Shown piece after piece: positions 20,949 to 32,541 of a stretch of 64,000 nucleotides of DNA. A model generated the notes under the pieces. The model was not told where the DNA came from. It did not search any database and saw only the letters and a program-made list of their open reading frames with translations. The position numbers were made by a program, and so were the translations under genes. Position 1 is the stretch's first letter. Every line of letters begins with the position of its first letter. Source of the stretch: a phage; the sequence record PZ386971.1. One strand, 5' to 3'.

Positions 20949-21617
20949 ATGCAAGAGATCACTCTCTCCGAACGTACACTTCAGTTGCTGGCCAACTTTG
21001 AGACCATCAACCCATCTATCGTCCTGACACCGGGTAAGATGCTGCGCAGCATTAACGATTCGTCTACTGTTATCGCCGTGGCACAGATCGAAGAAGACTT
21101 CCCGTTTGAGTTCCCTATCCTGGACCTGACCAAACTTCTGGCCATCCAGCGCCTGCCTTCCTTCAAAGGTGGTAAAGCCGAATTCCATCAGGACTACATC
21201 CTGTTGAAAGGCGAAAACTCTCAGCTGCAATTCTGGCGTTCTGCTAAAGAACTCACTGTTGTTCCGGCTGACACCATTGAACTGCCGTCTGTCGACTTTG
21301 AAGCGATCATCACTCCAGAGAAGATGAAAGAACTGACCCGCGCCTGTTCTACCCTCGGACACAAGACTGTGCGCCTGGTTGCTCAGGGTGGCAAAACTCG
21401 CCTGGTTGCAACCACCACTACCCTGGACAACTCCAACAACTACACTGTTGAGCTGGGCGAAACCGCGCTGCCGGACTTCGTAATGCCGCTGGATGTTGCC
21501 AACCTGAAAATGATCGAAGGCAACTACACTCTGCGTGCCTGTGCTGATCTACAGATGGTGAACTTCCAATCATCCGACGCGACGATCAATTACTTCGTCG
21601 GCGCACAGATTGAGTAA
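20949..21617 (+). CDS. 45: Sliding clamp (T4 gp45-like)
   Basis: 222 aa; LLANFETINPSIVL and NLKMIEGNYTL resemble T4 gp45 LLKNFATINSGIML and NMKMQPGNYKL. Confidence 0.85.
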   Translation: MQEITLSERTLQLLANFETINPSIVLTPGKMLRSINDSSTVIAVAQIEEDFPFEFPILDLTKLLAIQRLPSFKGGKAEFHQDYILLKGENSQLQFWRSAKELTVVPADTIELPSVDFEAIITPEKMKELTRACSTLGHKTVRLVAQGGKTRLVATTTTLDNSNNYTVELGETALPDFVMPLDVANLKMIEGNYTLRACADLQMVNFQSSDATINYFVGAQIE

Positions 21618-22691: not shown

Positions 22692-23114
22692 ATGGCCGCC
22701 CTTGGATTGTTCGATTACCTGTCTGCTCTGAACAGCAGCAAAGAAAACCTTCTGCGGACTGATGACCCAGAAGTGTTGAAAGGATTCGACCCGTTTATGA
22801 CGCGGCGTGGTTTAGCTCAGAGCAAAGACACTCTAGTGACCGCTCAGCAGATGAACAAACTGCATGCTGTTACTCCATGGATGCAATGGTCATATGCCTT
22901 TCACACCATTCCGGCGCGGAAACGCTACGACAAATGGTCTAAGAAAGGTCCGATTGATCCTGACGTGAAGTTACTCTCCGAGTACTTCTACATCAGCATG
23001 GAGAAGGCATCCGAGTACGTCCGTTTCTTGCCGAAGGAAGTCCTGGCCGAAATACGCGAGAAGATGAGACGCACTGAGCTGAACGCCAAAGCGAAACCGC
23101 GCAAGGCTAAGTAG
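22692..23114 (+). CDS. 62: Clamp loader small subunit (T4 gp62-like)
   Basis: 140 aa; ARKRYDKWSK resembles T4 gp62 RGKRYGKWAK; follows gp44 gene. Confidence 0.7.
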   Translation: MAALGLFDYLSALNSSKENLLRTDDPEVLKGFDPFMTRRGLAQSKDTLVTAQQMNKLHAVTPWMQWSYAFHTIPARKRYDKWSKKGPIDPDVKLLSEYFYISMEKASEYVRFLPKEVLAEIREKMRRTELNAKAKPRKAK

Positions 23115-23143
23115 TTCAAACTATTGTGAAAGGAGAATGAGTC

Positions 23144-23608
23144 ATGGCGCGCAATACGCTAGACATATTGAACATTTCAGCCGTCAACGATGAGGCCAGC
23201 ATCGTTGATTGTATGGTTGAAGTTCAATTGAACCAAGATCGGCCAGGAATATTCCTGGGGATCAAGGAAACACTGAGCCGGATTGGGGTAAACACGCGCC
23301 AAGAGCCGAATACTCTGTATCAGACTTGCCATATTCTTCATAAGTGTGGTAAGTATTATATCGTCCACTTTAAGCATCTATTCATGCTGGACGGGCATTA
23401 CAACGGATTTAACCGCGAAGATGTCCTGAGGATGAACCGCATCATCAAGCTGCTGGAGCAGTGGAACATGGTGAAGGTCATTCATCCCGAGCAGGTCACC
23501 GAAGCCGCCGATATGTCACGCATTAAAGTGGTTAAACACGATCAGGTTCCTGAATGGAAGCTGGTCCCAAAATACATTATCCGGCCTACGAAGGCCAAGA
23601 GCGAATAA
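23144..23608 (+). CDS. regA: RegA translational repressor
   Basis: LYQTCHILHKCGKYYIVHFKHLFMLDG and EWKLVPKYIIRP match T4 RegA LYQSCHILQKKGLYYIVHFKEMLRMDG and EWKLVPKYTIG. Confidence 0.85.
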   Translation: MARNTLDILNISAVNDEASIVDCMVEVQLNQDRPGIFLGIKETLSRIGVNTRQEPNTLYQTCHILHKCGKYYIVHFKHLFMLDGHYNGFNREDVLRMNRIIKLLEQWNMVKVIHPEQVTEAADMSRIKVVKHDQVPEWKLVPKYIIRPTKAKSE

Positions 23609-23624
23609 CTGGAGTCGCTAAATC

Positions 23625-24497
23625 ATGACAACTACATTTTCTAAGAACGTGAATCTGAATCTGGCTTTCGGTAATGCAAAGGGCGACGTCACATCGCCTG
23701 ACTTTGGTAAGATCCGCAATCAGGCGAAACTGGTGCTGGAAGAGACCCGCGAACTGCTGGAAGCGGTGTTCTTTGACCATGATGTGAAGGTGGAATTCAC
23801 TGCAACTCCACGAGTCCTGAAAGAACCTGCCGTTGTGGACATCAAAGGCATCATGCGCCAGATCATGGATGCCCAGGGCGACATCACAACAGTCAACGAC
23901 GGTTTGGCTCATATTGCTGGTTTCGACGGCGACGAATGCCTACAGCGCGTGTATGCGTCTAACATGAGCAAGTTCATTCGCAATGAAGGTGAAGTTGTGC
24001 CTGCACTGGATTACTACTACAACAAAGGCTTCCCACGCGAAAGTCTGCGCATCGAAGGGGAATTCCCTCAGGCGTGCATCAAAGTGGTAGACACCATCAC
24101 CGTCGACGGCAAAGAATACCCGGCTGGCAAGTTCCTGAAGAACATGGCAACCTTCAAAGAGCCTGACTTCTCTGATATGCTGACTGCCGAGCCTAAGCGC
24201 CAGATCACTGAAATCATTCTGACGGGTACGGCCATTCCAGGCCAGCTCGGCTCTAACGAACACGCTGGTGTTGCCTTCGCTCCGTTCGATTTTATTGACG
24301 AGATCATGGGATACACCAAGATGGGCTTCCAGGCGTTCTCTGGCGAAACAGTCGAGAGCTACATTCCCGTGTTTGTTTTCAATGAAGACAACTTCCCAAC
24401 TCTACCGTTGATCTGGGGTGAATGGAAAGCCAACGTCCGTATCTATGTGGCCAGCCCAGTGCAATCATCTATCACCCAACTGACCCGTATCGATTAA
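23625..24497 (+). CDS. Hypothetical protein (290 aa) with weak MazG/HisE-like all-alpha NTP-pyrophosphatase signature at N-terminus
   Basis: EETRELLEAV (EExxE) segment; the full EExxE...EExxD motif is not convincingly present. Confidence 0.45.
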   Translation: MTTTFSKNVNLNLAFGNAKGDVTSPDFGKIRNQAKLVLEETRELLEAVFFDHDVKVEFTATPRVLKEPAVVDIKGIMRQIMDAQGDITTVNDGLAHIAGFDGDECLQRVYASNMSKFIRNEGEVVPALDYYYNKGFPRESLRIEGEFPQACIKVVDTITVDGKEYPAGKFLKNMATFKEPDFSDMLTAEPKRQITEIILTGTAIPGQLGSNEHAGVAFAPFDFIDEIMGYTKMGFQAFSGETVESYIPVFVFNEDNFPTLPLIWGEWKANVRIYVASPVQSSITQLTRID

Positions 24498-24565
24498 GAT
24501 ATACGGTTATTCACTAAACAACAGAGGCTATAATGGCCTCTGTTTTCGTATTCTAAGAGGATACC

Positions 24566-25789
24566 ATGAAAGATAAACCATATGACATCCCATATTGCGG
24601 TGTCCGTGAAACCAAAATCAAATCAGCCCATCCTATGTTAAGTTCATTCCACCGTCAGCTGGCATATGAATGGATGAGGGATCGTTATGCGATACATGTC
24701 AAGAAGGACGTGCAATGCCTTCCAGCGCCATGGACGGATAATCCGGTATTACGCCAAGTCAAGTTTTGTAACGTGCGGAGAGAGCACGATAGACAGTCTC
24801 GAAATTTGATCAATAATATCATCCTCAATCAGGATCTCACGCTATCTGACAAAATGTTCAACTGTGTATTGTTCCGCATGTACAACATGTGGGAACCTAT
24901 ACAGGCTTTGGGTGGTCCATGGACGATCGAAGAATTCGGAAACATAAATCTTGAATGGTGTCGAAGTGTTCTTCAGGAATTCGAATCTAAAGGTGGCAAA
25001 GTTTTCACCAATGCGTTTAATACAGGCGGTCTGAAACAATGCCTGGCTTTCCCCGAACTAGTTGTCAACCACAAGGAGCAGCGCTTCGGTGGGATGATGG
25101 TGAATCTGATCTGTAAAGACGGTTCAACCCAGAACATGGATTACAAGGAAGCCAAGGCCATCGCTGAAGCAGAGCCGGACTTCTACACCATCGAAGGTTG
25201 GGAACCGTACATGCCAATGCGTGTCATCCGCTCCCTGAAGGCATTCGTCAACAAACACCCTCATTACTTTGATCGCCTCAGGGAATTTAGCCGTCCCGAC
25301 TCTGTTTACCAGGCGATGTATGACGACATTGAGGGGCTTGGACCATTCTTGGCATACCAGATTTGGGTTGATTTTACATACATCGATGAATATCCATTCA
25401 GTGAAAACCACTTCACTATCGCTGGTCCAGGTTGCCGTGCTGGTATCGATCTGTTATTTTTGGACAAGGACGGCATGACGCATGAAGAATGCATATTCTG
25501 GGTTCGTGATCATCAAGATCAATTGTTCGCTCAGTATGGGTATAAACGTAATGAATTTTGGTCGGCAGAAGAACCGGAAGATCGTTGCATGAATGTTATG
25601 CAGCTGGAGAACATGTTCTGTGAACTTCAGAAATATACCCGCTGTGTTGAGGCAGTGATGCGCGGGGAGAAACCTCGAGGAAAGGTGGGGTATGACGGGA
25701 ATGGTAGTGCGTATAAGCAACGTTGTGATGAAGTCGTGCTCAAACGTGGTTCCGTCAATTTGCTGGACCGTTTGAAGAAACCTGAATAA
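24566..25789 (+). CDS. Hypothetical protein (407 aa), orphan enzyme-like
   Basis: Long clean ORF with RBS; no recognisable P-loop, methyltransferase or ligase motif. Confidence 0.55.
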   Translation: MKDKPYDIPYCGVRETKIKSAHPMLSSFHRQLAYEWMRDRYAIHVKKDVQCLPAPWTDNPVLRQVKFCNVRREHDRQSRNLINNIILNQDLTLSDKMFNCVLFRMYNMWEPIQALGGPWTIEEFGNINLEWCRSVLQEFESKGGKVFTNAFNTGGLKQCLAFPELVVNHKEQRFGGMMVNLICKDGSTQNMDYKEAKAIAEAEPDFYTIEGWEPYMPMRVIRSLKAFVNKHPHYFDRLREFSRPDSVYQAMYDDIEGLGPFLAYQIWVDFTYIDEYPFSENHFTIAGPGCRAGIDLLFLDKDGMTHEECIFWVRDHQDQLFAQYGYKRNEFWSAEEPEDRCMNVMQLENMFCELQKYTRCVEAVMRGEKPRGKVGYDGNGSAYKQRCDEVVLKRGSVNLLDRLKKPE

Positions 25790-25903
25790 AGATTCCCTTT
25801 ACTTCGTTCTTCAATAACTCAATCCAGCGTATATTAACCTCACTTAAACGAAGCGCCCTGGCAAACGGGGCGCACATTTGAACTGAAACAGGAAGATTAC
25901 ATC

Positions 25904-27922
25904 ATGTCAGATTTTAAGCCCTTCGCAGTAGCTGTCAACAATAACGTGCTGGCCATGTCAGCAACTGGTCTGTTCATGACCAACATCGATAAAGATGCTC
26001 TGTGGGATCTGTATCTGTCTTCTTTCCCTGCTGGCACTAACCCGCTTTATCGTGAGCGTACCGAGCACGACTGCACCTGCTGTAAACAATTCATCCGTAA
26101 TATCGGCGGTGTGGTCACCATCGACTCCGACCTGAACGTGATCTCTATCTGGGATAACATTCAGCTGGGTAACGAATACGACGTTGTCGCTGCGGCGCTG
26201 TCAGCATATGTTAAGCAGCACGCAATCGTCGACGTGTACTTCAACGACACCAAGAAAGTTGGTGTTGAGTCGAATCACGAAATGAAAGACGGTATTGCCC
26301 GCACCTACAACCACTTCCACACCGACCTGCTGGGTAGCTATGTTCTGCGGGCAGATACCATCGCTTCTAAGAAGGGCGAAATCCGCCAGGCGATTGAAGT
26401 GTTTGAGCGCGGTCTGCGCGAACTGTCTCTGGAATCGGCTGAAATCGTTCTGGAATTGATTGACCAGAATTCTCTGTATCGCGGTGAAGAGCACAAAGCG
26501 GCAGTGCAGGCGTTCGTGGTGAACAAGACCCTGTACGAACAAACTGCAGAAGAGAAACGCGCTCTGTGGGCTTGGCGCACTGGCTACCGTGCAAACGGTC
26601 ATACCCCTCACGGCATTCGTAATACCGTGATTGGCTCTCTGCTGGTAGACCTCAATGAAGGCCGGGATTTGGAAACCGCCGTGAAGTCCTTTGAAGCCAA
26701 AGTCGCCCCGACGAACTACAAGCGCCCAACCGCGCTGGTCACGAAGTCGATGATTGAAAACGCGCAGAAAGAAGTCGAAGCGCTGGGTCTGACTGATTCA
26801 CTGGGTCGCCGTTATGCCGTGTATGACGATCTGACCATCAACAACGTTCTGTTCGCCGATCTGGCAGCTCAGAAGAAGATGGACCCGTTTGCTCAGCTGG
26901 CGTCTGAAGTGAAGACTCCGACCAAGTCCCTGGACAAGGTTGAAGAGATCACGATCGACGACTTCCTGGCCAACGTGTTGCCAAAGGCGCATTCCCTGGA
27001 AGTGCTGGTCGAAAACTCTCACATTGGCAACCTGATGTCCCTGATCGCTCCGGCTACCGCAGGCGCTCCTAACCTGTTCAAATGGAACAACGGTTTCAGC
27101 TGGTCATACAACGGTGAAGTGGCCGACTCCATCAAAGAGCGCGTGAAGACAGCAGGCGGCAACGTTGACAGCTTCCTCCGGGTGTCACTGGCTTGGCATA
27201 ACAACGACGACCTGGATCTGAGCATGAACGATCCTCTTCACAACCACGTATATTTTCGCAACCGTCGTTCGACAACTGGCGCAACTCTGGACATCGACAT
27301 GAACGGTATGGACGGCATTGACCCAAATCGCCGTCCGGTGGAGAACATCTTCTTCAGCGATGAACGCAAGCTACGTGACGGGAATTATGAGTTCTATGTC
27401 ACCAACTTCAACAAGCGTGAAACCTGTGACGTTGGTTTCGAAATCGAAGTCGAATACAAAGGCCAGACCAAGCGCTTCTCACACCCTGGCCTGGGTAACA
27501 AAGATCGCACGTTGGCTGTTGTGGTTCAGGTTCGCGCTGGTCAGGTGGTTGACATCAGTTCTACCCTGAAAGACGACGCTCGCTCTCAGGAAATCTGGGG
27601 CATCAAGACCTCCGTCTTCCAGAAGGTACAGCTGGTTCTGAACTCACCAAACCATTGGGACGGCGAGCAGACGGGCAACAAGCACGTGTTCTTCATCCTG
27701 GAAGGTTGTGCTAACCCTGTCGGCACCCGTGGTTTCTATAACGAATATCTGAAGCCGGAACTTGATAAACACCGCAAGGTTTTTGAAATGTTAGGTGGTA
27801 AGATTAAAGTACAGCCAAGCAATGAGCAGCTGTCCGGTCTGGGCTTCTCTACCACCCAACGCAACCACGTGTTCGTGAAGGTGAGCGGTTCGTTCAACCG
27901 CACTGTGAAAGTTGTGTTCTAA
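25904..27922 (+). CDS. Hypothetical large protein (672 aa)
   Basis: Clean ORF preceded by AGGAAGATTACATCATG; Cys cluster HDCTCCKQF near N-terminus; no recognisable catalytic motif. Confidence 0.6.
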   Translation: MSDFKPFAVAVNNNVLAMSATGLFMTNIDKDALWDLYLSSFPAGTNPLYRERTEHDCTCCKQFIRNIGGVVTIDSDLNVISIWDNIQLGNEYDVVAAALSAYVKQHAIVDVYFNDTKKVGVESNHEMKDGIARTYNHFHTDLLGSYVLRADTIASKKGEIRQAIEVFERGLRELSLESAEIVLELIDQNSLYRGEEHKAAVQAFVVNKTLYEQTAEEKRALWAWRTGYRANGHTPHGIRNTVIGSLLVDLNEGRDLETAVKSFEAKVAPTNYKRPTALVTKSMIENAQKEVEALGLTDSLGRRYAVYDDLTINNVLFADLAAQKKMDPFAQLASEVKTPTKSLDKVEEITIDDFLANVLPKAHSLEVLVENSHIGNLMSLIAPATAGAPNLFKWNNGFSWSYNGEVADSIKERVKTAGGNVDSFLRVSLAWHNNDDLDLSMNDPLHNHVYFRNRRSTTGATLDIDMNGMDGIDPNRRPVENIFFSDERKLRDGNYEFYVTNFNKRETCDVGFEIEVEYKGQTKRFSHPGLGNKDRTLAVVVQVRAGQVVDISSTLKDDARSQEIWGIKTSVFQKVQLVLNSPNHWDGEQTGNKHVFFILEGCANPVGTRGFYNEYLKPELDKHRKVFEMLGGKIKVQPSNEQLSGLGFSTTQRNHVFVKVSGSFNRTVKVVF

Positions 27923-27966
27923 ACCTGATTTGAAATTGTAACCCATTCATCATTGAGGATAGTAAA

Positions 27967-28338
27967 ATGTTTGATAAAGCAACCCGTATGAAACTGCGCT
28001 TCGAGTCTAACAAAGGCCTGTTGTCTGTTGAGCAGGTCTGGGACCTGAGCCTGACTGCCCTGAACGAAATGGCGAAAGGTCTGAGCCGTCAGGTGAAAGC
28101 AGCAGAAACCGATGAAGAAGATTTCATTGGTACCAAAAGCAACGTTGACTCCGAACTGCAGCTGCGCTTCGACGTTGTCAAGCACATCATCGGCGTTAAG
28201 CTGAAAGAACGTGACGACAGCAGAGACGCGGCAGAGCGTAAGGCGAACAACCAGATTATCCTGGAGCTGATCCAGCGTAAGAAACAGCAAGAGCTGGAAA
28301 GCAAATCTGTTGAAGAACTGGAAGCACTCCTGAAATAA
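27967..28338 (+). CDS. Hypothetical charged helical protein (123 aa)
   Basis: ORF with GAGGAT SD; followed by a terminator hairpin. Confidence 0.5.
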   Translation: MFDKATRMKLRFESNKGLLSVEQVWDLSLTALNEMAKGLSRQVKAAETDEEDFIGTKSNVDSELQLRFDVVKHIIGVKLKERDDSRDAAERKANNQIILELIQRKKQQELESKSVEELEALLK

Positions 28339-28361
28339 TCTGTCTGACCTCAGCCTGAGCA

Positions 28362-28388
28362 ACCCCGCCATGTGCGGGGTTTCTTTTG
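28362..28388 (+). terminator. Rho-independent terminator
   Basis: ccccgcCATGTgcgggg then TTTCTTTT. Confidence 0.55.
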
Positions 28389-28398
28389 GACAAAGAAT

Positions 28399-28773
28399 AT
28401 GAAACCTGTTATATGCGATTACTGTGGCCTCCCAGCCGAATTCGTCGGTGGTGATGTTCTCTACCCTCATCACCCTGACCTCCGCAATCTGAAGTTCTGG
28501 GTGTGCACTCCATGTGATGCCCGTGTCGGTTGCCATGCCCATGGCGACGGCAGACAACCTTTGGGAAGGATGGCGAATGCCGCTCTCCGTGCTGCTAAGC
28601 AAAAAGCCCATAGATCGTTTGACCCATTATGGAAAAGCGGAGAGAGGAGCAGGAGCGACGCTTACAGTTGGCTGGCGCATAAGCTGGGGATTAAGAAGCG
28701 CGATTGCCATATCGGCTTGTTCGATATCGACATGTGCCGTAAAGTAGTGGAGGTCTGTAAACAAATATCATAG
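28399..28773 (+). CDS. Zinc-ribbon protein (125 aa)
   Basis: CDYC...(n)...CTPCDARVGCHAH Cys/His cluster. Confidence 0.5.
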   Translation: MKPVICDYCGLPAEFVGGDVLYPHHPDLRNLKFWVCTPCDARVGCHAHGDGRQPLGRMANAALRAAKQKAHRSFDPLWKSGERSRSDAYSWLAHKLGIKKRDCHIGLFDIDMCRKVVEVCKQIS

Positions 28774-28781
28774 GAGAACAC

Positions 28782-29654
28782 ATGACAACTCGCACTGGCA
28801 TCAAACTCACTCCTGAAGTCCTGAAGTCACATATCGCTGAGGTGATTTACGAAGACCGCGAAGTCGGCGGTCACCGGGCTATCACTTGTCATTTCAAGAT
28901 GGATAACGGCTTCGTCGTTCACGGCACCAAGCCCAGCACATCCATAGACCCGGCCAACTTCGATGAAGCCCTGGGCAAAGAGATTTCCTACAATAACACC
29001 TTCGACCAGCTGTGGCAGCTGGAGGCGTACCGGGCGCTTGTTGAACAAGATCTGTTGGCCAAAGCCACGGAAACGGCAGAGATCCGGATCGATCAATACG
29101 CTGTTGAACGTAGCGCCCTCTGTCCGGCCTATCACCTCGGCTTCAATGTGATGATTCAGGAAGTGATGTTCAGAGCGGAAAATGGCGAGCGCTTCTTGGC
29201 GTCTTTCATTTGTGGGCCGGATGACATGGAACTTGTTGTTGAATCTCACAACGCCAAATCTCGTAAGGCTGTTAGTGATTTCCTGCGCGCCAACTCCAAA
29301 CTCGATCTCACTTGTTCGCCATTGGTTCTGCGCATCGCCAAGATTTGTCATGAAGCCAACCGCGCATACTGCAAGTCTATTGGTGACGACTCTCAACTGC
29401 CTTGGGAACAATCTCCGGCCTGGCAGCGTGAGAGCGCTTGCAAAGGTGTTATCTTCCATCTCACTGGTGATCGTAAGCCCAGCGAATCGCATGAGAGATG
29501 GATGGCGGAGAAGGAGTCTGAGGGATGGGTATATGGCCCAGTCAAAGACCCTCAGACCAAGCAACACCCTTGCATAGTTCCGTATGGAGAACTCCCGGTA
29601 CAACAACGCTCCAAAGATTATATTTTCAAATCCATTGTAGACTCCTTTAAATAA
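28782..29654 (+). CDS. Gp49-like N-terminal domain fused to a C-terminal RyR-domain
   Basis: N-terminus HRAITCHFKMDNGFVVHGT...DPANFDEALGKEISYNNTFDQLWQLEAYRAL; C-terminus HERWMAEKESEGWVYGPVKDPQTKQHPCIVPYGELP resembles the RyR repeat. Confidence 0.5.
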   Translation: MTTRTGIKLTPEVLKSHIAEVIYEDREVGGHRAITCHFKMDNGFVVHGTKPSTSIDPANFDEALGKEISYNNTFDQLWQLEAYRALVEQDLLAKATETAEIRIDQYAVERSALCPAYHLGFNVMIQEVMFRAENGERFLASFICGPDDMELVVESHNAKSRKAVSDFLRANSKLDLTCSPLVLRIAKICHEANRAYCKSIGDDSQLPWEQSPAWQRESACKGVIFHLTGDRKPSESHERWMAEKESEGWVYGPVKDPQTKQHPCIVPYGELPVQQRSKDYIFKSIVDSFK

Positions 29655-29690
29655 GCTCTGAATAATATTTCAACCTGTCAATAATATAAT

Positions 29691-29719
29691 GCCCGGTTAT
29701 ATTCAATCGGGCATTTTTA
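29691..29719 (+). terminator. Terminator-like hairpin after the RyR-domain gene
   Basis: gcccg-(12 nt loop)-cgggc followed by ATTTTTA. Confidence 0.4.
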
Positions 29720-29728
29720 TTATATTAA

Positions 29729-29759
29729 TTGGCATCAATACCGCCTGTCGTAATATAAT
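29729..29759 (+). promoter_or_regulatory. Sigma70-like promoter (TTGGCA ... TATAAT) upstream of the vWA gene
   Basis: TTGGCA at 29729 and TAATATAAT at about 29751-29759 (16-19 bp spacer depending on hexamer choice). Confidence 0.4.
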
Positions 29760-29804
29760 AGTCCCATGTTAAAATAGTTAGGAAATATAACTCACGAGAG
29801 CCTG

Positions 29805-29981
29805 ATGACCGACAACAAATTAAAACGTGTCGGACTTGATTGTCTTGACAATTCATTCCGCCCCAGTGATGTTCTGGTCGCCCAAATGGAAAACAACCGG
29901 GATTTCATTGAAACTATGCTGGAGAACGCCGACGCGAACTCCAAACACTCCAAAGCCCAAAAAGGTCAAAACGATGATTGA
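29805..29981 (+). CDS. Possible small ORF (58 aa) overlapping the vWA start
   Basis: Not in the track (under 60 aa); ATG with GAGAG upstream; reads MTDNKLKRVGLDCLDNSFRP...; hand-indexed coordinates. Confidence 0.25.
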   Translation: MTDNKLKRVGLDCLDNSFRPSDVLVAQMENNRDFIETMLENADANSKHSKAQKGQNDD

Positions 29982-32175
29982 ATCATTAACATTTAAGAAT
30001 GCGGTTGCGACCGTTGCGCCGTCTAACCATGTAATCGTTGTGGATATCTCCGGTTCCATGTATCGTTCACTTCCAGAAGTCCGTAAGCATCTGAAGGAGA
30101 ACCTGCCTTCCCTGGTGAAACCCGAAGATACTGTGAGCATCCTTTACTTTTCATCTCGCGGTGATTTCGGAACGGTATTTGCCGGACGCCAGATCGGTGT
30201 CGCATCTGACCTGAGCGAGCTGAATAAGCTGATCGATCGCTTCCTGCAACCGTCCGGATGTACTGGCTTTGTTGAGCCGTTGAAACTGGCGATGGACACT
30301 GCTCGTAGCCTGAAGAAGCCTGGCTATGTCAACAACCTGGCGTTCATGACTGACGGGTATGACAACTGCTGGCGTACCAACGAAATCTTACTGGTTGCTG
30401 AGACCCTGCCATTTGCTTTCGATAACATTACTTTCATCGAATACGGCTGGCACTGTAACCGCGAACTGCTGGCGCAGATGGCCGAACGCTCCGGTGCGAC
30501 CCACGTGTTTGCCGAAGGTCAGACCGAATACCAGACCGAACTAGAAAACGTGCTGAAGTCATCAGTGCCGAAGGTGAAAGTTGATGTCCCAGTCATCTAC
30601 ACCCATGCCATCTACGTCGAAAACGGTGTGGCAACAGTACTGGCGGTGCAGGACGATGACTCTCACCCGGTCGGCTATGTGAGCATCCCTGAGAGCGTCA
30701 CCAAGCTGTGGGTTGTAAACCCTAACATGATCGACCAGCTTGATGCGCTGGCGGACATCCAGGCGGCATACGTGCTGGCGTTCTACGGCGTACACATCAT
30801 GGACGCAGACCTGGTATGGGCTGCGCTGAAGAAGACGGGCGACGTTCGCTTCATCAAACAGTACAGCAACTGCTTTACCAAGCAGGACTACTCCAACATC
30901 AAGAACGATCTGGTACAGGCGATTGTTGACGACCAGCTGCGCGGCGTTGACGGTATTGACTATGACCTGGTTCCGGCTGAAGATGCGACGACCGTCGTTG
31001 ACGTGCTGACGTATCTGGCTGAAGCTGGCGTGTCTGTTGCCACCAAACATCCTATGTTCTCCTACAAGAGCATTGGTCGCGGTACTGTGCAGAAAGCGGA
31101 CGATACCGAAGACAAACTGGCAGAACAGATCGCGAATGCTCAGTCCAAAGAAGAGCGTAAAGCCCTGGCTCTCAAGCTGGCTGAGCACGAAGAATGGACG
31201 CCGTCGTTTGAACCTGCCAACGATCTGGGCGTTATCTCAATCAGCGATCTGGTCTACAACTCTGAGCGCCCGAACATCAGTGTGCGCACTATTCAGCATG
31301 GTACTGTGACTGTCCCTGAGTTCGCACAGAAGAAGTTTGGTCTGCCTGAAGAACTGGATACTTTCCAGTGGCGCAACTACACCATCGTCAAAGATGGTAT
31401 CATCAACGTGAAGACCCTGCCGTTCAAGGCTGATATCGAAGTTGTACAGAAGCTGATCGAAATGGGCGTCCACGTGTTTGGTGGACCGGAAGTGTTTGTC
31501 CTGAACCTGGAAAGCGTACCGCTGGTCAACCGCGCCATGGTCAAGAACATCAGTGCTGCTCAGTTCTTTGCGGATAATGTCCGTTTGGAAGCCCTGAAAG
31601 GCAAGCAGAAGGTGCTGAAGTTCTATCGAGACGCCCTGGTTGGTAAAGGTAACGCCAAAGGCCTGGCAGTACAGTACGGCGCTGAGGCGGCCGAGTTCCT
31701 GTCCTCCTACGGCATCCGCGATTACGGCTTCTCACCGAAGACTGAGACCAAAGAGTCTACCGACTTCTACATGAGCCGGGAGCTGAACGTGAAGATCGCT
31801 GGCGCTTCATCTCTACCGTCTATCGCAGCGGTACAGAAGAAGATTGCCGAGAACAAGAAACTCAATGCTGGTGACTTGTTCATCGCCAATGCTCTGAAAG
31901 AGTACGAAGCATTCGTGAAGTCTCCTATGATCACTGCCGTGCCTGAAGCCTTACAGAAACAGCTGATCGAAAACTGGATCGACGCTGCTGCCAAGGCGAC
32001 CATCACCGAAGTCCGTGCCCTGAACAAGACACTGTCTAAAGTGGTGTATGGTATCGTTGCTGGCCACGGCTGGTTCACCGACCTCGACCTGGAAGAGTCC
32101 ACCATGGAAGTTGAAGTGGATGGCGTGAAGTACAAGGTCACTGCCGAACTGACAGAGAAAGAAATCAAAATCTAA
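29974..32175 (+). CDS. von Willebrand factor A (vWA) domain protein, 733 aa
   Basis: VIVVDISGSM (MIDAS DxSxS), later FMTDGYDN; N-terminal 49 aa of the track ORF are low-complexity and likely untranslated, start ATG 29974 with AAAGG SD. Confidence 0.7.
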   Translation: MIESLTFKNAVATVAPSNHVIVVDISGSMYRSLPEVRKHLKENLPSLVKPEDTVSILYFSSRGDFGTVFAGRQIGVASDLSELNKLIDRFLQPSGCTGFVEPLKLAMDTARSLKKPGYVNNLAFMTDGYDNCWRTNEILLVAETLPFAFDNITFIEYGWHCNRELLAQMAERSGATHVFAEGQTEYQTELENVLKSSVPKVKVDVPVIYTHAIYVENGVATVLAVQDDDSHPVGYVSIPESVTKLWVVNPNMIDQLDALADIQAAYVLAFYGVHIMDADLVWAALKKTGDVRFIKQYSNCFTKQDYSNIKNDLVQAIVDDQLRGVDGIDYDLVPAEDATTVVDVLTYLAEAGVSVATKHPMFSYKSIGRGTVQKADDTEDKLAEQIANAQSKEERKALALKLAEHEEWTPSFEPANDLGVISISDLVYNSERPNISVRTIQHGTVTVPEFAQKKFGLPEELDTFQWRNYTIVKDGIINVKTLPFKADIEVVQKLIEMGVHVFGGPEVFVLNLESVPLVNRAMVKNISAAQFFADNVRLEALKGKQKVLKFYRDALVGKGNAKGLAVQYGAEAAEFLSSYGIRDYGFSPKTETKESTDFYMSRELNVKIAGASSLPSIAAVQKKIAENKKLNAGDLFIANALKEYEAFVKSPMITAVPEALQKQLIENWIDAAAKATITEVRALNKTLSKVVYGIVAGHGWFTDLDLEESTMEVEVDGVKYKVTAELTEKEIKI

Positions 32176-32217: not shown

Positions 32218-32541
32218 ATGAGCAGTAAACCAACATATGTTGAAGTCATGCGTCATCTGGCTCAGTACGCCACTGACAATCTGAACTTGGATCTGTGGCG
32301 TGACGATGACAAGCGCAAATTGCTGGACGACGTGGCATCTCAGAACGAGGACGCCCTAGACAAGCTGGCTGGCCTCCGCACCAAGAAAGACCTCGGCGGT
32401 GATGAACTGGACGCTATCGAAATTGTAATGGACCTCGAAGAAGAGTTTCAGGTCGAAATCGACGATGGTTGGCTGGGCAGTAAAGGTGATGACCCGACCA
32501 TGGGTGAACTCGCTGAACTCGTGGTTGCCCTGCGCAAATAA
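32218..32541 (+). CDS. Acyl carrier protein homolog with Ser-to-Glu at the phosphopantetheine site
   Basis: DLGGDELDAIEIVMDLEEEFQVEIDD aligns with E. coli ACP [26 protein letters not shown]; the conserved DSL Ser is Glu (DEL). Confidence 0.7.
   Translation: MSSKPTYVEVMRHLAQYATDNLNLDLWRDDDKRKLLDDVASQNEDALDKLAGLRTKKDLGGDELDAIEIVMDLEEEFQVEIDDGWLGSKGDDPTMGELAELVVALRK

Follow-up and report, generated by a model that had tools for sequence, protein, structure and literature searches.

The stretch of phage DNA analysed here (the window; 64,000 nucleotides (nt) of sequence record PZ386971.1, read on one strand, 5' to 3') encodes two large proteins of 407 and 672 amino acids (aa) at positions 24566-27922, downstream of the translational repressor gene regA. 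A first-pass annotation had described both as orphans without assignable motifs and supposed that they serve nucleotide or DNA modification. The open reading frames (ORFs) of 290 aa (23625-24497), 407 aa (24566-25789) and 672 aa (25904-27922), all on the + strand, are as it gave them and the observation is real, but both large proteins belong to known families. The source phage is an Agtrevirus (ViI-like, Ackermannviridae): over the 7-kb stretch 23000-30000 it shares 94% nucleotide identity with Salmonella phage vB_CECAV_050, and 85-92% with Kuttervirus phages such as Marshall and SFP10. On balance we regard the interval as two unrelated, non-orphan genes of a ViI-like phage. Its principal features are as follows.

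24566..25789, + strand: gene of the 407-aa HMUDK_hel protein (Pfam PF18723; 'aGPT-Pplase clade 1'), orthologue of ViI gp160
25745..25786, + strand: C-terminal tail RGSVNLLDRLKKPE of that protein (residues 394-407), a putative clamp-docking peptide after a disordered linker
25904..27922, + strand: gene of the 672-aa DUF8224 protein, with about five predicted domains (phrog_1735; homologues with PF26675)
26066..26083, + strand: segment H55-D-C57-T-C-C60, which with H137 may form a metal (Zn) site in the N-terminal domain
27161..27583, + strand: domain predicted to be a TerD-like beta-sandwich (residues ~420-560); its acidic motifs DDLDL and LDIDMN are conserved
27967..28338, + strand: gene of the small DUF8224 partner, 123 aa (phrog_2018), in which an N-terminal motif is conserved and the C-terminal half is charged and repetitive

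The 407-aa protein matches PF18723 (HMUDK_hel, '5-hmdU DNA kinase, helical domain') with 280.2 bits against a gathering cutoff of 25 (E 2.4e-83), its residues 31-363 aligning with positions 5-278 of the 281-position model, so a motif can be assigned to it after all. It has 910 detectable homologues, several of which are named after the HMUDK_hel domain in UniRef; a GenBank record calls one homologue 'alpha-glutamyl/putrescinyl thymine pyrophosphorylase clade 1', and 'aGPT-Pplase clade 1' is likewise the name used in some GenBank records and in one paper. NCBIfam and PADLOC returned no match, nor did sequence searches of the PDB with either the single protein or the family profile. Over its full length the protein is 79% identical to Vi01_130c of phage ViI (orf00160, YP_004327501). 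Since the gp numbers of Lee et al. are the ViI orf numbers, as verified on gp226, gp243 and gp247 (orf00226, orf00243 and orf00247, whose accessions match those of the 2021 paper), the 407-aa protein is the orthologue of ViI gp160 and a member of the thymidine-hypermodification gene set. When lysates with five ViI proteins were mixed, gp160 ('aG/PT-PPlase1' of Lee et al. 2018) being one of the five, 5-(2-aminoethoxy)methyl-deoxyuridine (5-NeOmdU) was rebuilt on DNA containing 5-hydroxymethyl-deoxyuridine (5-hmdU); a DNA-glycosylase-like fold was predicted for gp160 earlier (PMC5889632).

Gene order in related phages places HMUDK_hel beside two enzymes of this pathway. In a metagenomic lineage (L026; L numbers denote comparison loci) the genes for the HMUD2 kinase, the amino-acid:DNA transferase (ADDT) and HMUDK_hel follow one another without interruption; the DNA polymerase gene comes immediately before this cluster, and genes for the HMUD1 kinase and a thymidylate-synthase-like protein come after it. 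In a second lineage (L025) a 186-aa ORF stands between ADDT and HMUDK_hel, and the clamp and clamp-loader genes come immediately after the cluster. Vibrio phage 207E48.1, another member of the Ackermannviridae, encodes HMUDK_hel, ADDT, HMUD2, the pyridoxal phosphate (PLP) enzyme and MazG; two small ORFs intervene in its HMUD2/ADDT/HMUDK_hel cluster, which lies 5 kb from the polymerase gene. HMUD2, ADDT and HMUDK_hel make up a conserved trio; in the window itself the 407-aa gene is not clustered with kinase or transferase genes.

The members of the trio also share a C-terminal peptide whose type varies with lineage, its consensus being SVNLLxxLKK in enteric Ackermannviridae and TKRLW in the Vibrio ones. 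In ViI the tails are RVNLLSMMGKKG on the DNA polymerase, SVSLLGLMRKA on the gp243 kinase, SVNLMSLLKR on the gp247 ADDT and SVNLLDRLKKPE on gp160. A regular expression, composed after the motif had been seen in these proteins, matched the polymerase, gp243, gp247, gp160 and one 70-aa protein only among 1,045 six-frame ORFs from the window and 137 kb of ViI. The polymerase, HMUD2, ADDT and HMUDK_hel of Vibrio phage 207E48.1 all end in K(R/K)LW, the other carriers among its 685 ORFs being two small proteins and one probably spurious ORF, while at L025 HMUD2, ADDT and HMUDK_hel end in xV(L/F)D(F/L/I)(F/L). Of 49 aligned HMUDK_hel homologues, nearly all have a C-terminus of one of these types, and when the HMUDK_hel profile is compared with only gp247 of ViI, the sole similarity lies in the last dozen residues. 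The AlphaFold2 (AF2) model of the 407-aa protein has a predicted local distance difference test score (pLDDT) below 50 at residues 382-402, a predicted disordered linker. Tails were located at the following sites.

Window: 25745-25786
ViI (L013): 28084-28125, 30493-30534 and 32271-32312
L014: 10356-10568
L016: 12844-21703

In T4, gp43, gp55 and gp33 attach to the sliding clamp, gp45, through similar C-termini that are borne on linkers of variable, flexible character (PMC2988020). Because the tails described here have the layout of those T4 clamp ligands, the trio may be tethered to the clamp on newly made DNA. By this analogy the tails of HMUD2, ADDT and HMUDK_hel are probably a sliding-clamp docking motif, and the peptides GSVNLLDRLKKPE and TKRLW would be candidate ligands of the cognate clamps. 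The 2021 pathway paper (PMC8989533) nowhere uses the word 'clamp', and we found no mention of tail-mediated coupling of base hypermodification to the replisome in the literature searched.

The 672-aa protein is of another kind. It matches phrog_1735 end to end. As PF26675 (DUF8224) is not in the local Pfam copy (0 matches), membership rests on the precomputed annotation of homologues: more than 5,500 of them carry PF26675, as do nearly all of the 120 homologues listed, from 99% down to 48% identity. With families of this size, neither protein can be called an orphan. No match was found in NCBIfam or PADLOC, and a literature search for DUF8224 returned no papers. A DUF8224 profile retrieved 9,357 representative clusters (50% identity) at E<=0.001, the best 150 listed being all full-length-sized, about 660-760 aa. 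By tblastn, DUF8224 occurs in 558 phage records, which include Ackermannviridae, Klebsiella phages of ~141-145 kb such as KPP-1, phiCbK-like Caulobacter phages, Bastille-like Bacillus phages, N4-like Vibrio phages, Microcystis phage MaMV-DC and Cellulophaga phage phi17:2. It was also found at 73 loci in genomes and metagenome-assembled genomes (MAGs) of bacteria and archaea, some of them probably prophages of Firmicutes. Examples are loci in bacterial genomes (L027, L029, L081, L089), in Methanobrevibacter MAGs (L085-L087) and in Asgard archaeal MAGs (L047, L082), as well as L068. Among these loci, a UvrD-like helicase gene lies within a few kb of DUF8224 in four bacterial ones and a NAMPT gene lies nearby in Paenibacillus; in a Ruminococcus genome the next large gene encodes a P-type cation ATPase.

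This distribution does not follow that of thymidine hypermodification. DUF8224 is absent from Vibrio phage 207E48.1 despite the full hypermodification set of that phage, and at L025 and L026 it is not near the set. Because of this, and of its spread over unrelated phages, a role in thymidine hypermodification is unsupported for the 672-aa protein, and so is a link of DUF8224 to DNA modification. The role in nucleotide or DNA modification suggested earlier for both genes therefore holds for the 407-aa gene, a gp160 orthologue whose family clusters with HMUD2 and ADDT, and is not supported for the 672-aa gene. Profile searches, one of the checks proposed in the first-pass annotation, led to a named DNA-modification family for the former and only to a domain of unknown function for the latter.

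The one constant companion of DUF8224 is the 123-aa gene. In 72 of the 79 full-length DUF8224 loci a homologue of it follows on the same strand, the gap having a median of ~17 nt; of the seven loci without it, five have less than ~350 nt of contig left, and the other two (L061, L087) have room and no detectable partner. Pairwise comparisons of the partner homologues give E values of 5e-34 to 7e-4, and the family shows no consistent Pfam match in 40 members and no PDB sequence match. No other neighbour family is found in more than 9 of 83 loci. The DUF8224 and 123-aa genes probably form a self-contained two-gene module, bounded downstream by a hairpin and independent of thymidine hypermodification. 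An AAA+/MoxR-like ATPase gene directly follows the pair in Bacillus phage BCP78 (L008 7530-8606) and in the unrelated Vibrio phage pVa5 (L009 7521-8540), and a chaperone-type helper in some lineages is hinted at. The idea of a MoxR-von Willebrand factor A (vWA) chaperone was dropped, as such an ATPase gene follows the pair in only two of ~20 phage loci inspected and the vWA protein of the window (782 aa) has no counterpart elsewhere; PADLOC gave no match for the latter. In Microcystis phage MaMV-DC (L010 3203-4672) a full-length gene for a SelO protein adenylyltransferase (Pfam E 1e-212) lies directly upstream of DUF8224.

The AF2 model of the 672-aa protein has a pLDDT of 84.8 and a predicted template modelling score of 0.50, and resolves about five domains. 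The cysteine cluster HDCTCC pointed out in the first-pass annotation is present near the N-terminus, and its conservation is partial: C57 and C60, together with H137, are at least 97% conserved in 75 homologues, whereas C59 is not. Since H55, C57, C60 and H137 are kept even in three distant relatives of ~535 aa that lack the C-terminal half, the sequences suggest an N-terminal metal site, at which these residues would bind the metal. These short relatives (phiH2 GP01, A1432 gp77 and Eowyn gp020) have no Pfam domain, and a Rosetta-stone lead ended likewise, the DUF8224 homologues of 700-764 aa adding no Pfam domain. In the model, the domain at residues ~420-560 appears to have a TerD fold with acidic metal-binding loops. 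TerD binds Ca2+. No TerD sequence match to the 672-aa protein was found in Pfam at E<=0.1. The last domain is the most conserved part of the protein and contains H594, C602, E614, H623 and E628.

What the 407-aa protein may do has to be considered against the published pathway, in which gp67 and gp243 act as kinases, gp247 as serine:DNA transferase and gp226 as PLP decarboxylase, and in which gp160 is given no role (PMC8989533). ViI-like phages replicate with 5-hmdU, phosphorylate the base within DNA and then swap the phosphate out. Because kinase, ADDT and PLP decarboxylase already suffice for 5-NeOmdU in vitro (PMC8989533), we propose for the gp160 product another fate of the activated base. 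The route from 5-hmdU to thymidine was described as 'still unknown' (PMC5889632), and the ADDT enzyme gp51 of phage M6 together with borohydride converts 5-phosphomethyl-deoxyuridine (5-PmdU) to thymidine (PMC8989533). The Glu and Cys of the E-T-x-x-C motif are reported to be essential in clade-2 (ADDT) enzymes (PMC8989533), and in the crystal structure of PaMx11 gp46 Glu243 and Thr244 bind a metal at O4 while Cys247 packs on the flipped base (PMC11472151). The AF2 model of the 407-aa protein (pLDDT 88.5) is mostly helical, and the residues invariant in the HMUDK_hel family are R71/R72/D75/R76, T148-N152, G287-C290 and E348/N349/C352/E353. We therefore envisage a 407-aa protein that would be kept on newly replicated DNA by its C-terminal peptide docked on the sliding clamp, in the manner of the T4 polymerase tail, and that would act on flipped-out 5-PmdU through a Glu-Asn-x-x-Cys motif resembling the catalytic Glu-Thr-x-x-Cys of ADDT, its product being thymidine or a second adduct. 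To make such an alternative product of activated 5-hmdU is the most attractive role for the protein, though we hold it tentatively, at well below even odds.

Several results weigh against this proposal. No activity has been demonstrated for any standalone HMUDK_hel protein, and no cofactor or hydride-donor motif was found in the 407-aa protein. Fold comparison, another check that had been suggested, gave weak matches: in a Foldseek search of the PDB, helix-hairpin-helix (HhH) glycosylases of the Ogg or QNG1 kind account for eight of the 16 best hits, with E >= 0.18, probability <= 0.25 and template modelling score <= 0.41. These hits, though not significant, are in line with the fold predicted earlier for gp160. 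ADDT (PF18724) gives no match to the protein in Pfam at E<=0.1; the only local profile-profile alignment of HMUDK_hel with ADDT (hhalign), which sets E348-N349-x-x-C352 opposite the E-T-x-x-C of ADDT, has a non-significant probability of 0.55% (E 0.11). As to the clamp, the 222-aa clamp protein of the window has no Pfam match of its own, and in ViI the gp67 kinase and the gp226 PLP enzyme carry no tail. At L026 the three enzymes end in TK(K/R)LW and the polymerase in KVNVLKFFK; because of this difference the tails may bind something other than the clamp. An alternative, which we consider about as likely as the thymidine- or adduct-forming role, is that the 407-aa protein is a non-enzymatic DNA-binding subunit, a specificity factor or scaffold that chooses which ~40% of thymidine positions are hypermodified. 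Such a subunit would fit the dispensability of the protein for 5-NeOmdU made from purified parts and the activity of the SP10 kinase without the helical domain fused to it, as which Pfam describes HMUDK_hel (PMC8989533), the tail held in common with kinase and transferase, and the classical observation that conversion to T or to the hypermodified base is sequence-specific (PMC5889632). The invariant polar and Cys residues listed above resemble an active site more than a scaffold, and E-N-x-x-C aligns with the ADDT catalytic motif, if without statistical support; both speak against this alternative.

For the 672-aa protein, a metal-dependent enzyme or sensor that would act early or in the middle of infection, in a complex with the 123-aa partner, on a universal target is our best guess, a speculative one held at low confidence. 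Nothing beyond one domain-level fold match ties the protein to a biochemical activity; Foldseek with the whole model against the PDB returned generic beta-sandwich noise only, so that fold comparison gave no PDB match for it, sequence searches of the PDB with the protein and its profile gave no match and no TerD, and the neighbours of DUF8224 are varied (ribonucleotide reductase (RNR), ligases, RtcB, queuosine genes, AAA+/MoxR-like ATPases and UvrD-like helicases). All of this counts against that reading. The TerD-like domain could instead be the Ca2+ sensor of an anti-defence or superinfection-exclusion module of Ter type, with an effector domain and the partner, directed at host immunity or at competing phages. 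We hold this unlikely, though about as likely as our best guess, as PADLOC has no match, no other Ter gene recurs nearby, and phages that infect Gram-positive bacteria, Gram-negative bacteria and cyanobacteria still share 40-50% identity in this protein, more than is usual where a protein serves in conflict. Were the 672-aa protein instead part of the virion or its assembly, rich in beta-sandwiches and with a helical chaperone-like partner, this would account for the matches of the C-terminal beta-sandwich domains to pilins, immunoglobulin domains and protease accessory domains, and for nearby genes labelled 'minor head protein' and 'tail protein' by annotation pipelines. It is very improbable: in every annotated phage examined DUF8224 lies in replication or early regions away from structural modules, PHROG gives it no structural category, and it occurs in myo-, sipho- and podoviruses alike. 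Equally improbable is that both large proteins jointly serve nucleotide or DNA modification, as first inferred from their shared neighbourhood. The two genes are adjacent in all enteric Ackermannviridae examined, and in other phages genes for RNR, thymidylate-synthase-like proteins, ligases or 7-deazaguanine are often found close to DUF8224, but Vibrio phage 207E48.1 does without it, HMUDK_hel clusters with HMUD2 and ADDT and not with DUF8224 at L025 and L026, and the small partner is its only recurrent neighbour in the 83 loci; moreover, the two genes are 114 nt apart, with no terminator in between, and it is upstream that insertions vary. The distribution largely refutes the joint role. Returning to our own proposals, their conjunction, namely that HMUD2, ADDT and HMUDK_hel ride the clamp behind the polymerase with HMUDK_hel as the missing thymidine-forming or ratio-setting activity, and that DUF8224 and its partner are a new metal-dependent enzyme system with mostly unprecedented folds, is unlikely to hold in full.

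The surroundings of the two genes contain the following further features.

20949..21617, + strand: sliding clamp (gp45-like), 222 aa, proposed docking partner of the C-terminal tail, identified from the annotation of syntenic genes in Marshall and ViI
23144..23608, + strand: regA translational repressor (Pfam Translat_reg, E 2e-34)
23625..24497, + strand: MazG-like nucleoside triphosphate pyrophosphohydrolase, 290 aa (phrog_2144 'MazG-like pyrophosphatase', E 7.9e-131, full length)
24520..24544, + strand: terminator-like hairpin between the MazG-like and 407-aa genes, an 11-bp stem followed by TTTTCGTATT
28361..28381, + strand: terminator-like hairpin after the DUF8224-partner unit, an 8-bp stem with 6 GC pairs followed by TCTTTTGG

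The L025 gene at the position equivalent to that of the window clamp encodes 227 aa and matches gp45-slide_C in Pfam. Like regA, gp44-like and gp62-like clamp-loader genes precede the three ORFs; they were recognized by their Gp44_lid/AAA and Phage_clamp_A matches. The T4 gene order is 45-44-62-regA-43. This order is not kept in the present phage family: as had been noticed, no DNA polymerase gene follows regA in the window. The ViI polymerase is Vi01_190, which lies ~56 kb from Vi01_130c and 57-58 kb from regA in the record and adjoins two hypermodification genes. The earlier suspicion that the 290-aa protein is MazG-like is borne out by its phrog_2144 match; it has the same annotation in relatives and is retained in Vibrio phage 207E48.1 (tblastn, 43% identity), and neither Pfam nor NCBIfam matches it.

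At the spot equivalent to the hairpin at 24520-24544, a terminator is annotated in Marshall. The gap around it (24498-24565) is an insertion hot spot in relatives, an HNH homing endonuclease gene being found there in Marshall and Maynard; in maane, SilasIsHot and Mansal the matched stretch gains genes for NAMPT and ribose-phosphate pyrophosphokinase (salvage of nicotinamide adenine dinucleotide), probably in the same gap. A cassette-type promoter had been claimed at 25798-25835, ahead of the 672-aa gene. The sequence there is TTTACT, 26 nt, TATATT; a sigma-70-type promoter is not supported, as this spacing is wrong for sigma-70 and a consensus scan found no promoter-like site on the + strand of the gap 25790-25903. 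A pattern loosely like it has only one other occurrence in the window. The same gap holds a hairpin at 25853-25873, with a 6-bp all-GC stem, a 9-nt loop and no T-run after it, which might act in RNA stability, processing or attenuation. Downstream of the DUF8224-partner pair, terminators are annotated in both Marshall and CcrKarma.

Two existing annotations of DUF8224 regions differ from that of the window. In vB_CECAV_050, the closest relative (L006 7920-8711), a minus-strand 'hypothetical protein' is annotated where the window (27919-28611) has the + strand partner and DUF3268 genes; as the + strand genes are kept across dozens of loci, the minus-strand call is probably an annotation error. 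In ViI NC_015296 (L002 15301-17320, minus strand) the DUF8224 gene appears as two overlapping ORFs, Vi01_129c (491 aa) and Vi01_128c (183 aa), both orf00158. This split is a frameshift or sequencing error, the gene being intact in the window and in ~460 other phage records. Further downstream, the window contains a DUF3268 zinc-finger gene (28372-28773, + strand), a gene at 28782-29654 whose product combines an N4 gp49/Sf6 gp66 domain with a RyR domain, and the large vWA-domain gene (29827-32175), whose real start is probably ~29971 according to comparison with Marshall and ViI and to its PHROG match. None of these three co-occurs with DUF8224 elsewhere.

The HMUDK_hel gene family has been known since 2013-2018, and the published pathway still lacks an enzyme activity for turning the 5-hmdU of DNA into thymidine (PMC5889632). 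The residual interest of the locus thus concerns this thymidine-forming step, the shared tail read as a replisome docking peptide, and the DUF8224-partner module. The lineage-specific tail suggests that base hypermodification may be physically coupled to the replisome and offers a testable handle on this. For the 672-aa gene the value of the analysis is mainly one of triage, in that it should not be filed under DNA modification. With its partner it makes up a very large and strongly conserved module, perhaps among the most widespread uncharacterised ones of large phages and a worthwhile structural and genetic target.

Compared with known systems, the DUF8224 pair recalls the MoxR AAA+/vWA pairs in that an AAA+/MoxR-like gene follows it in BCP78 and pVa5 and a 782-aa vWA protein is encoded 1.9 kb downstream in the window; it differs in that no MoxR-like gene stands beside it in the window or in most loci and vWA genes do not recur near DUF8224. 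Unlike TerD of Klebsiella (2kxt) and SCO6318 of Streptomyces (2qz7), the 672-aa protein lacks a Pfam TerD match, its TerD-like domain is one of about five, and no ter genes lie near. The 407-aa protein and ViI gp160, 79% identical over 407 residues, agree in Pfam family, in position after regA and MazG and in C-terminal tail, without substantive difference. The C-terminal half of gp186 of Bacillus phage SP10 would be of the same domain family, judged by the Pfam name and Table 3 of Lee 2018 (PMC5889632), but in SP10 the 5-hmdU DNA kinase and the domain are fused into one protein, whereas the window phage has a gene for each. With ADDT (ViI gp247; PaMx11 gp46 PUGT) the 407-aa protein shares its helical nature, the common cluster with the kinase in other lineages and the same tail; it may also share the HhH glycosylase-like fold described for ADDT and predicted earlier for gp160, and its E-N-x-x-C falls, in a non-significant alignment, on the ADDT E-T-x-x-C. 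It differs in that sequence and profile similarity are not significant (hhalign probability <1%) and PaMx11 gp46 is not among the Foldseek hits. Finally, the tails resemble those of T4 and RB69 gp43, gp55 and gp33 in being short hydrophobic peptides at the extreme C-terminus, after a disordered linker, that the polymerase has in common with other DNA-acting proteins. The T4 peptides are acidic-hydrophobic, whereas those described here are basic (SVNLLxxLKK or TKRLW), and their carriers are base-modifying enzymes.

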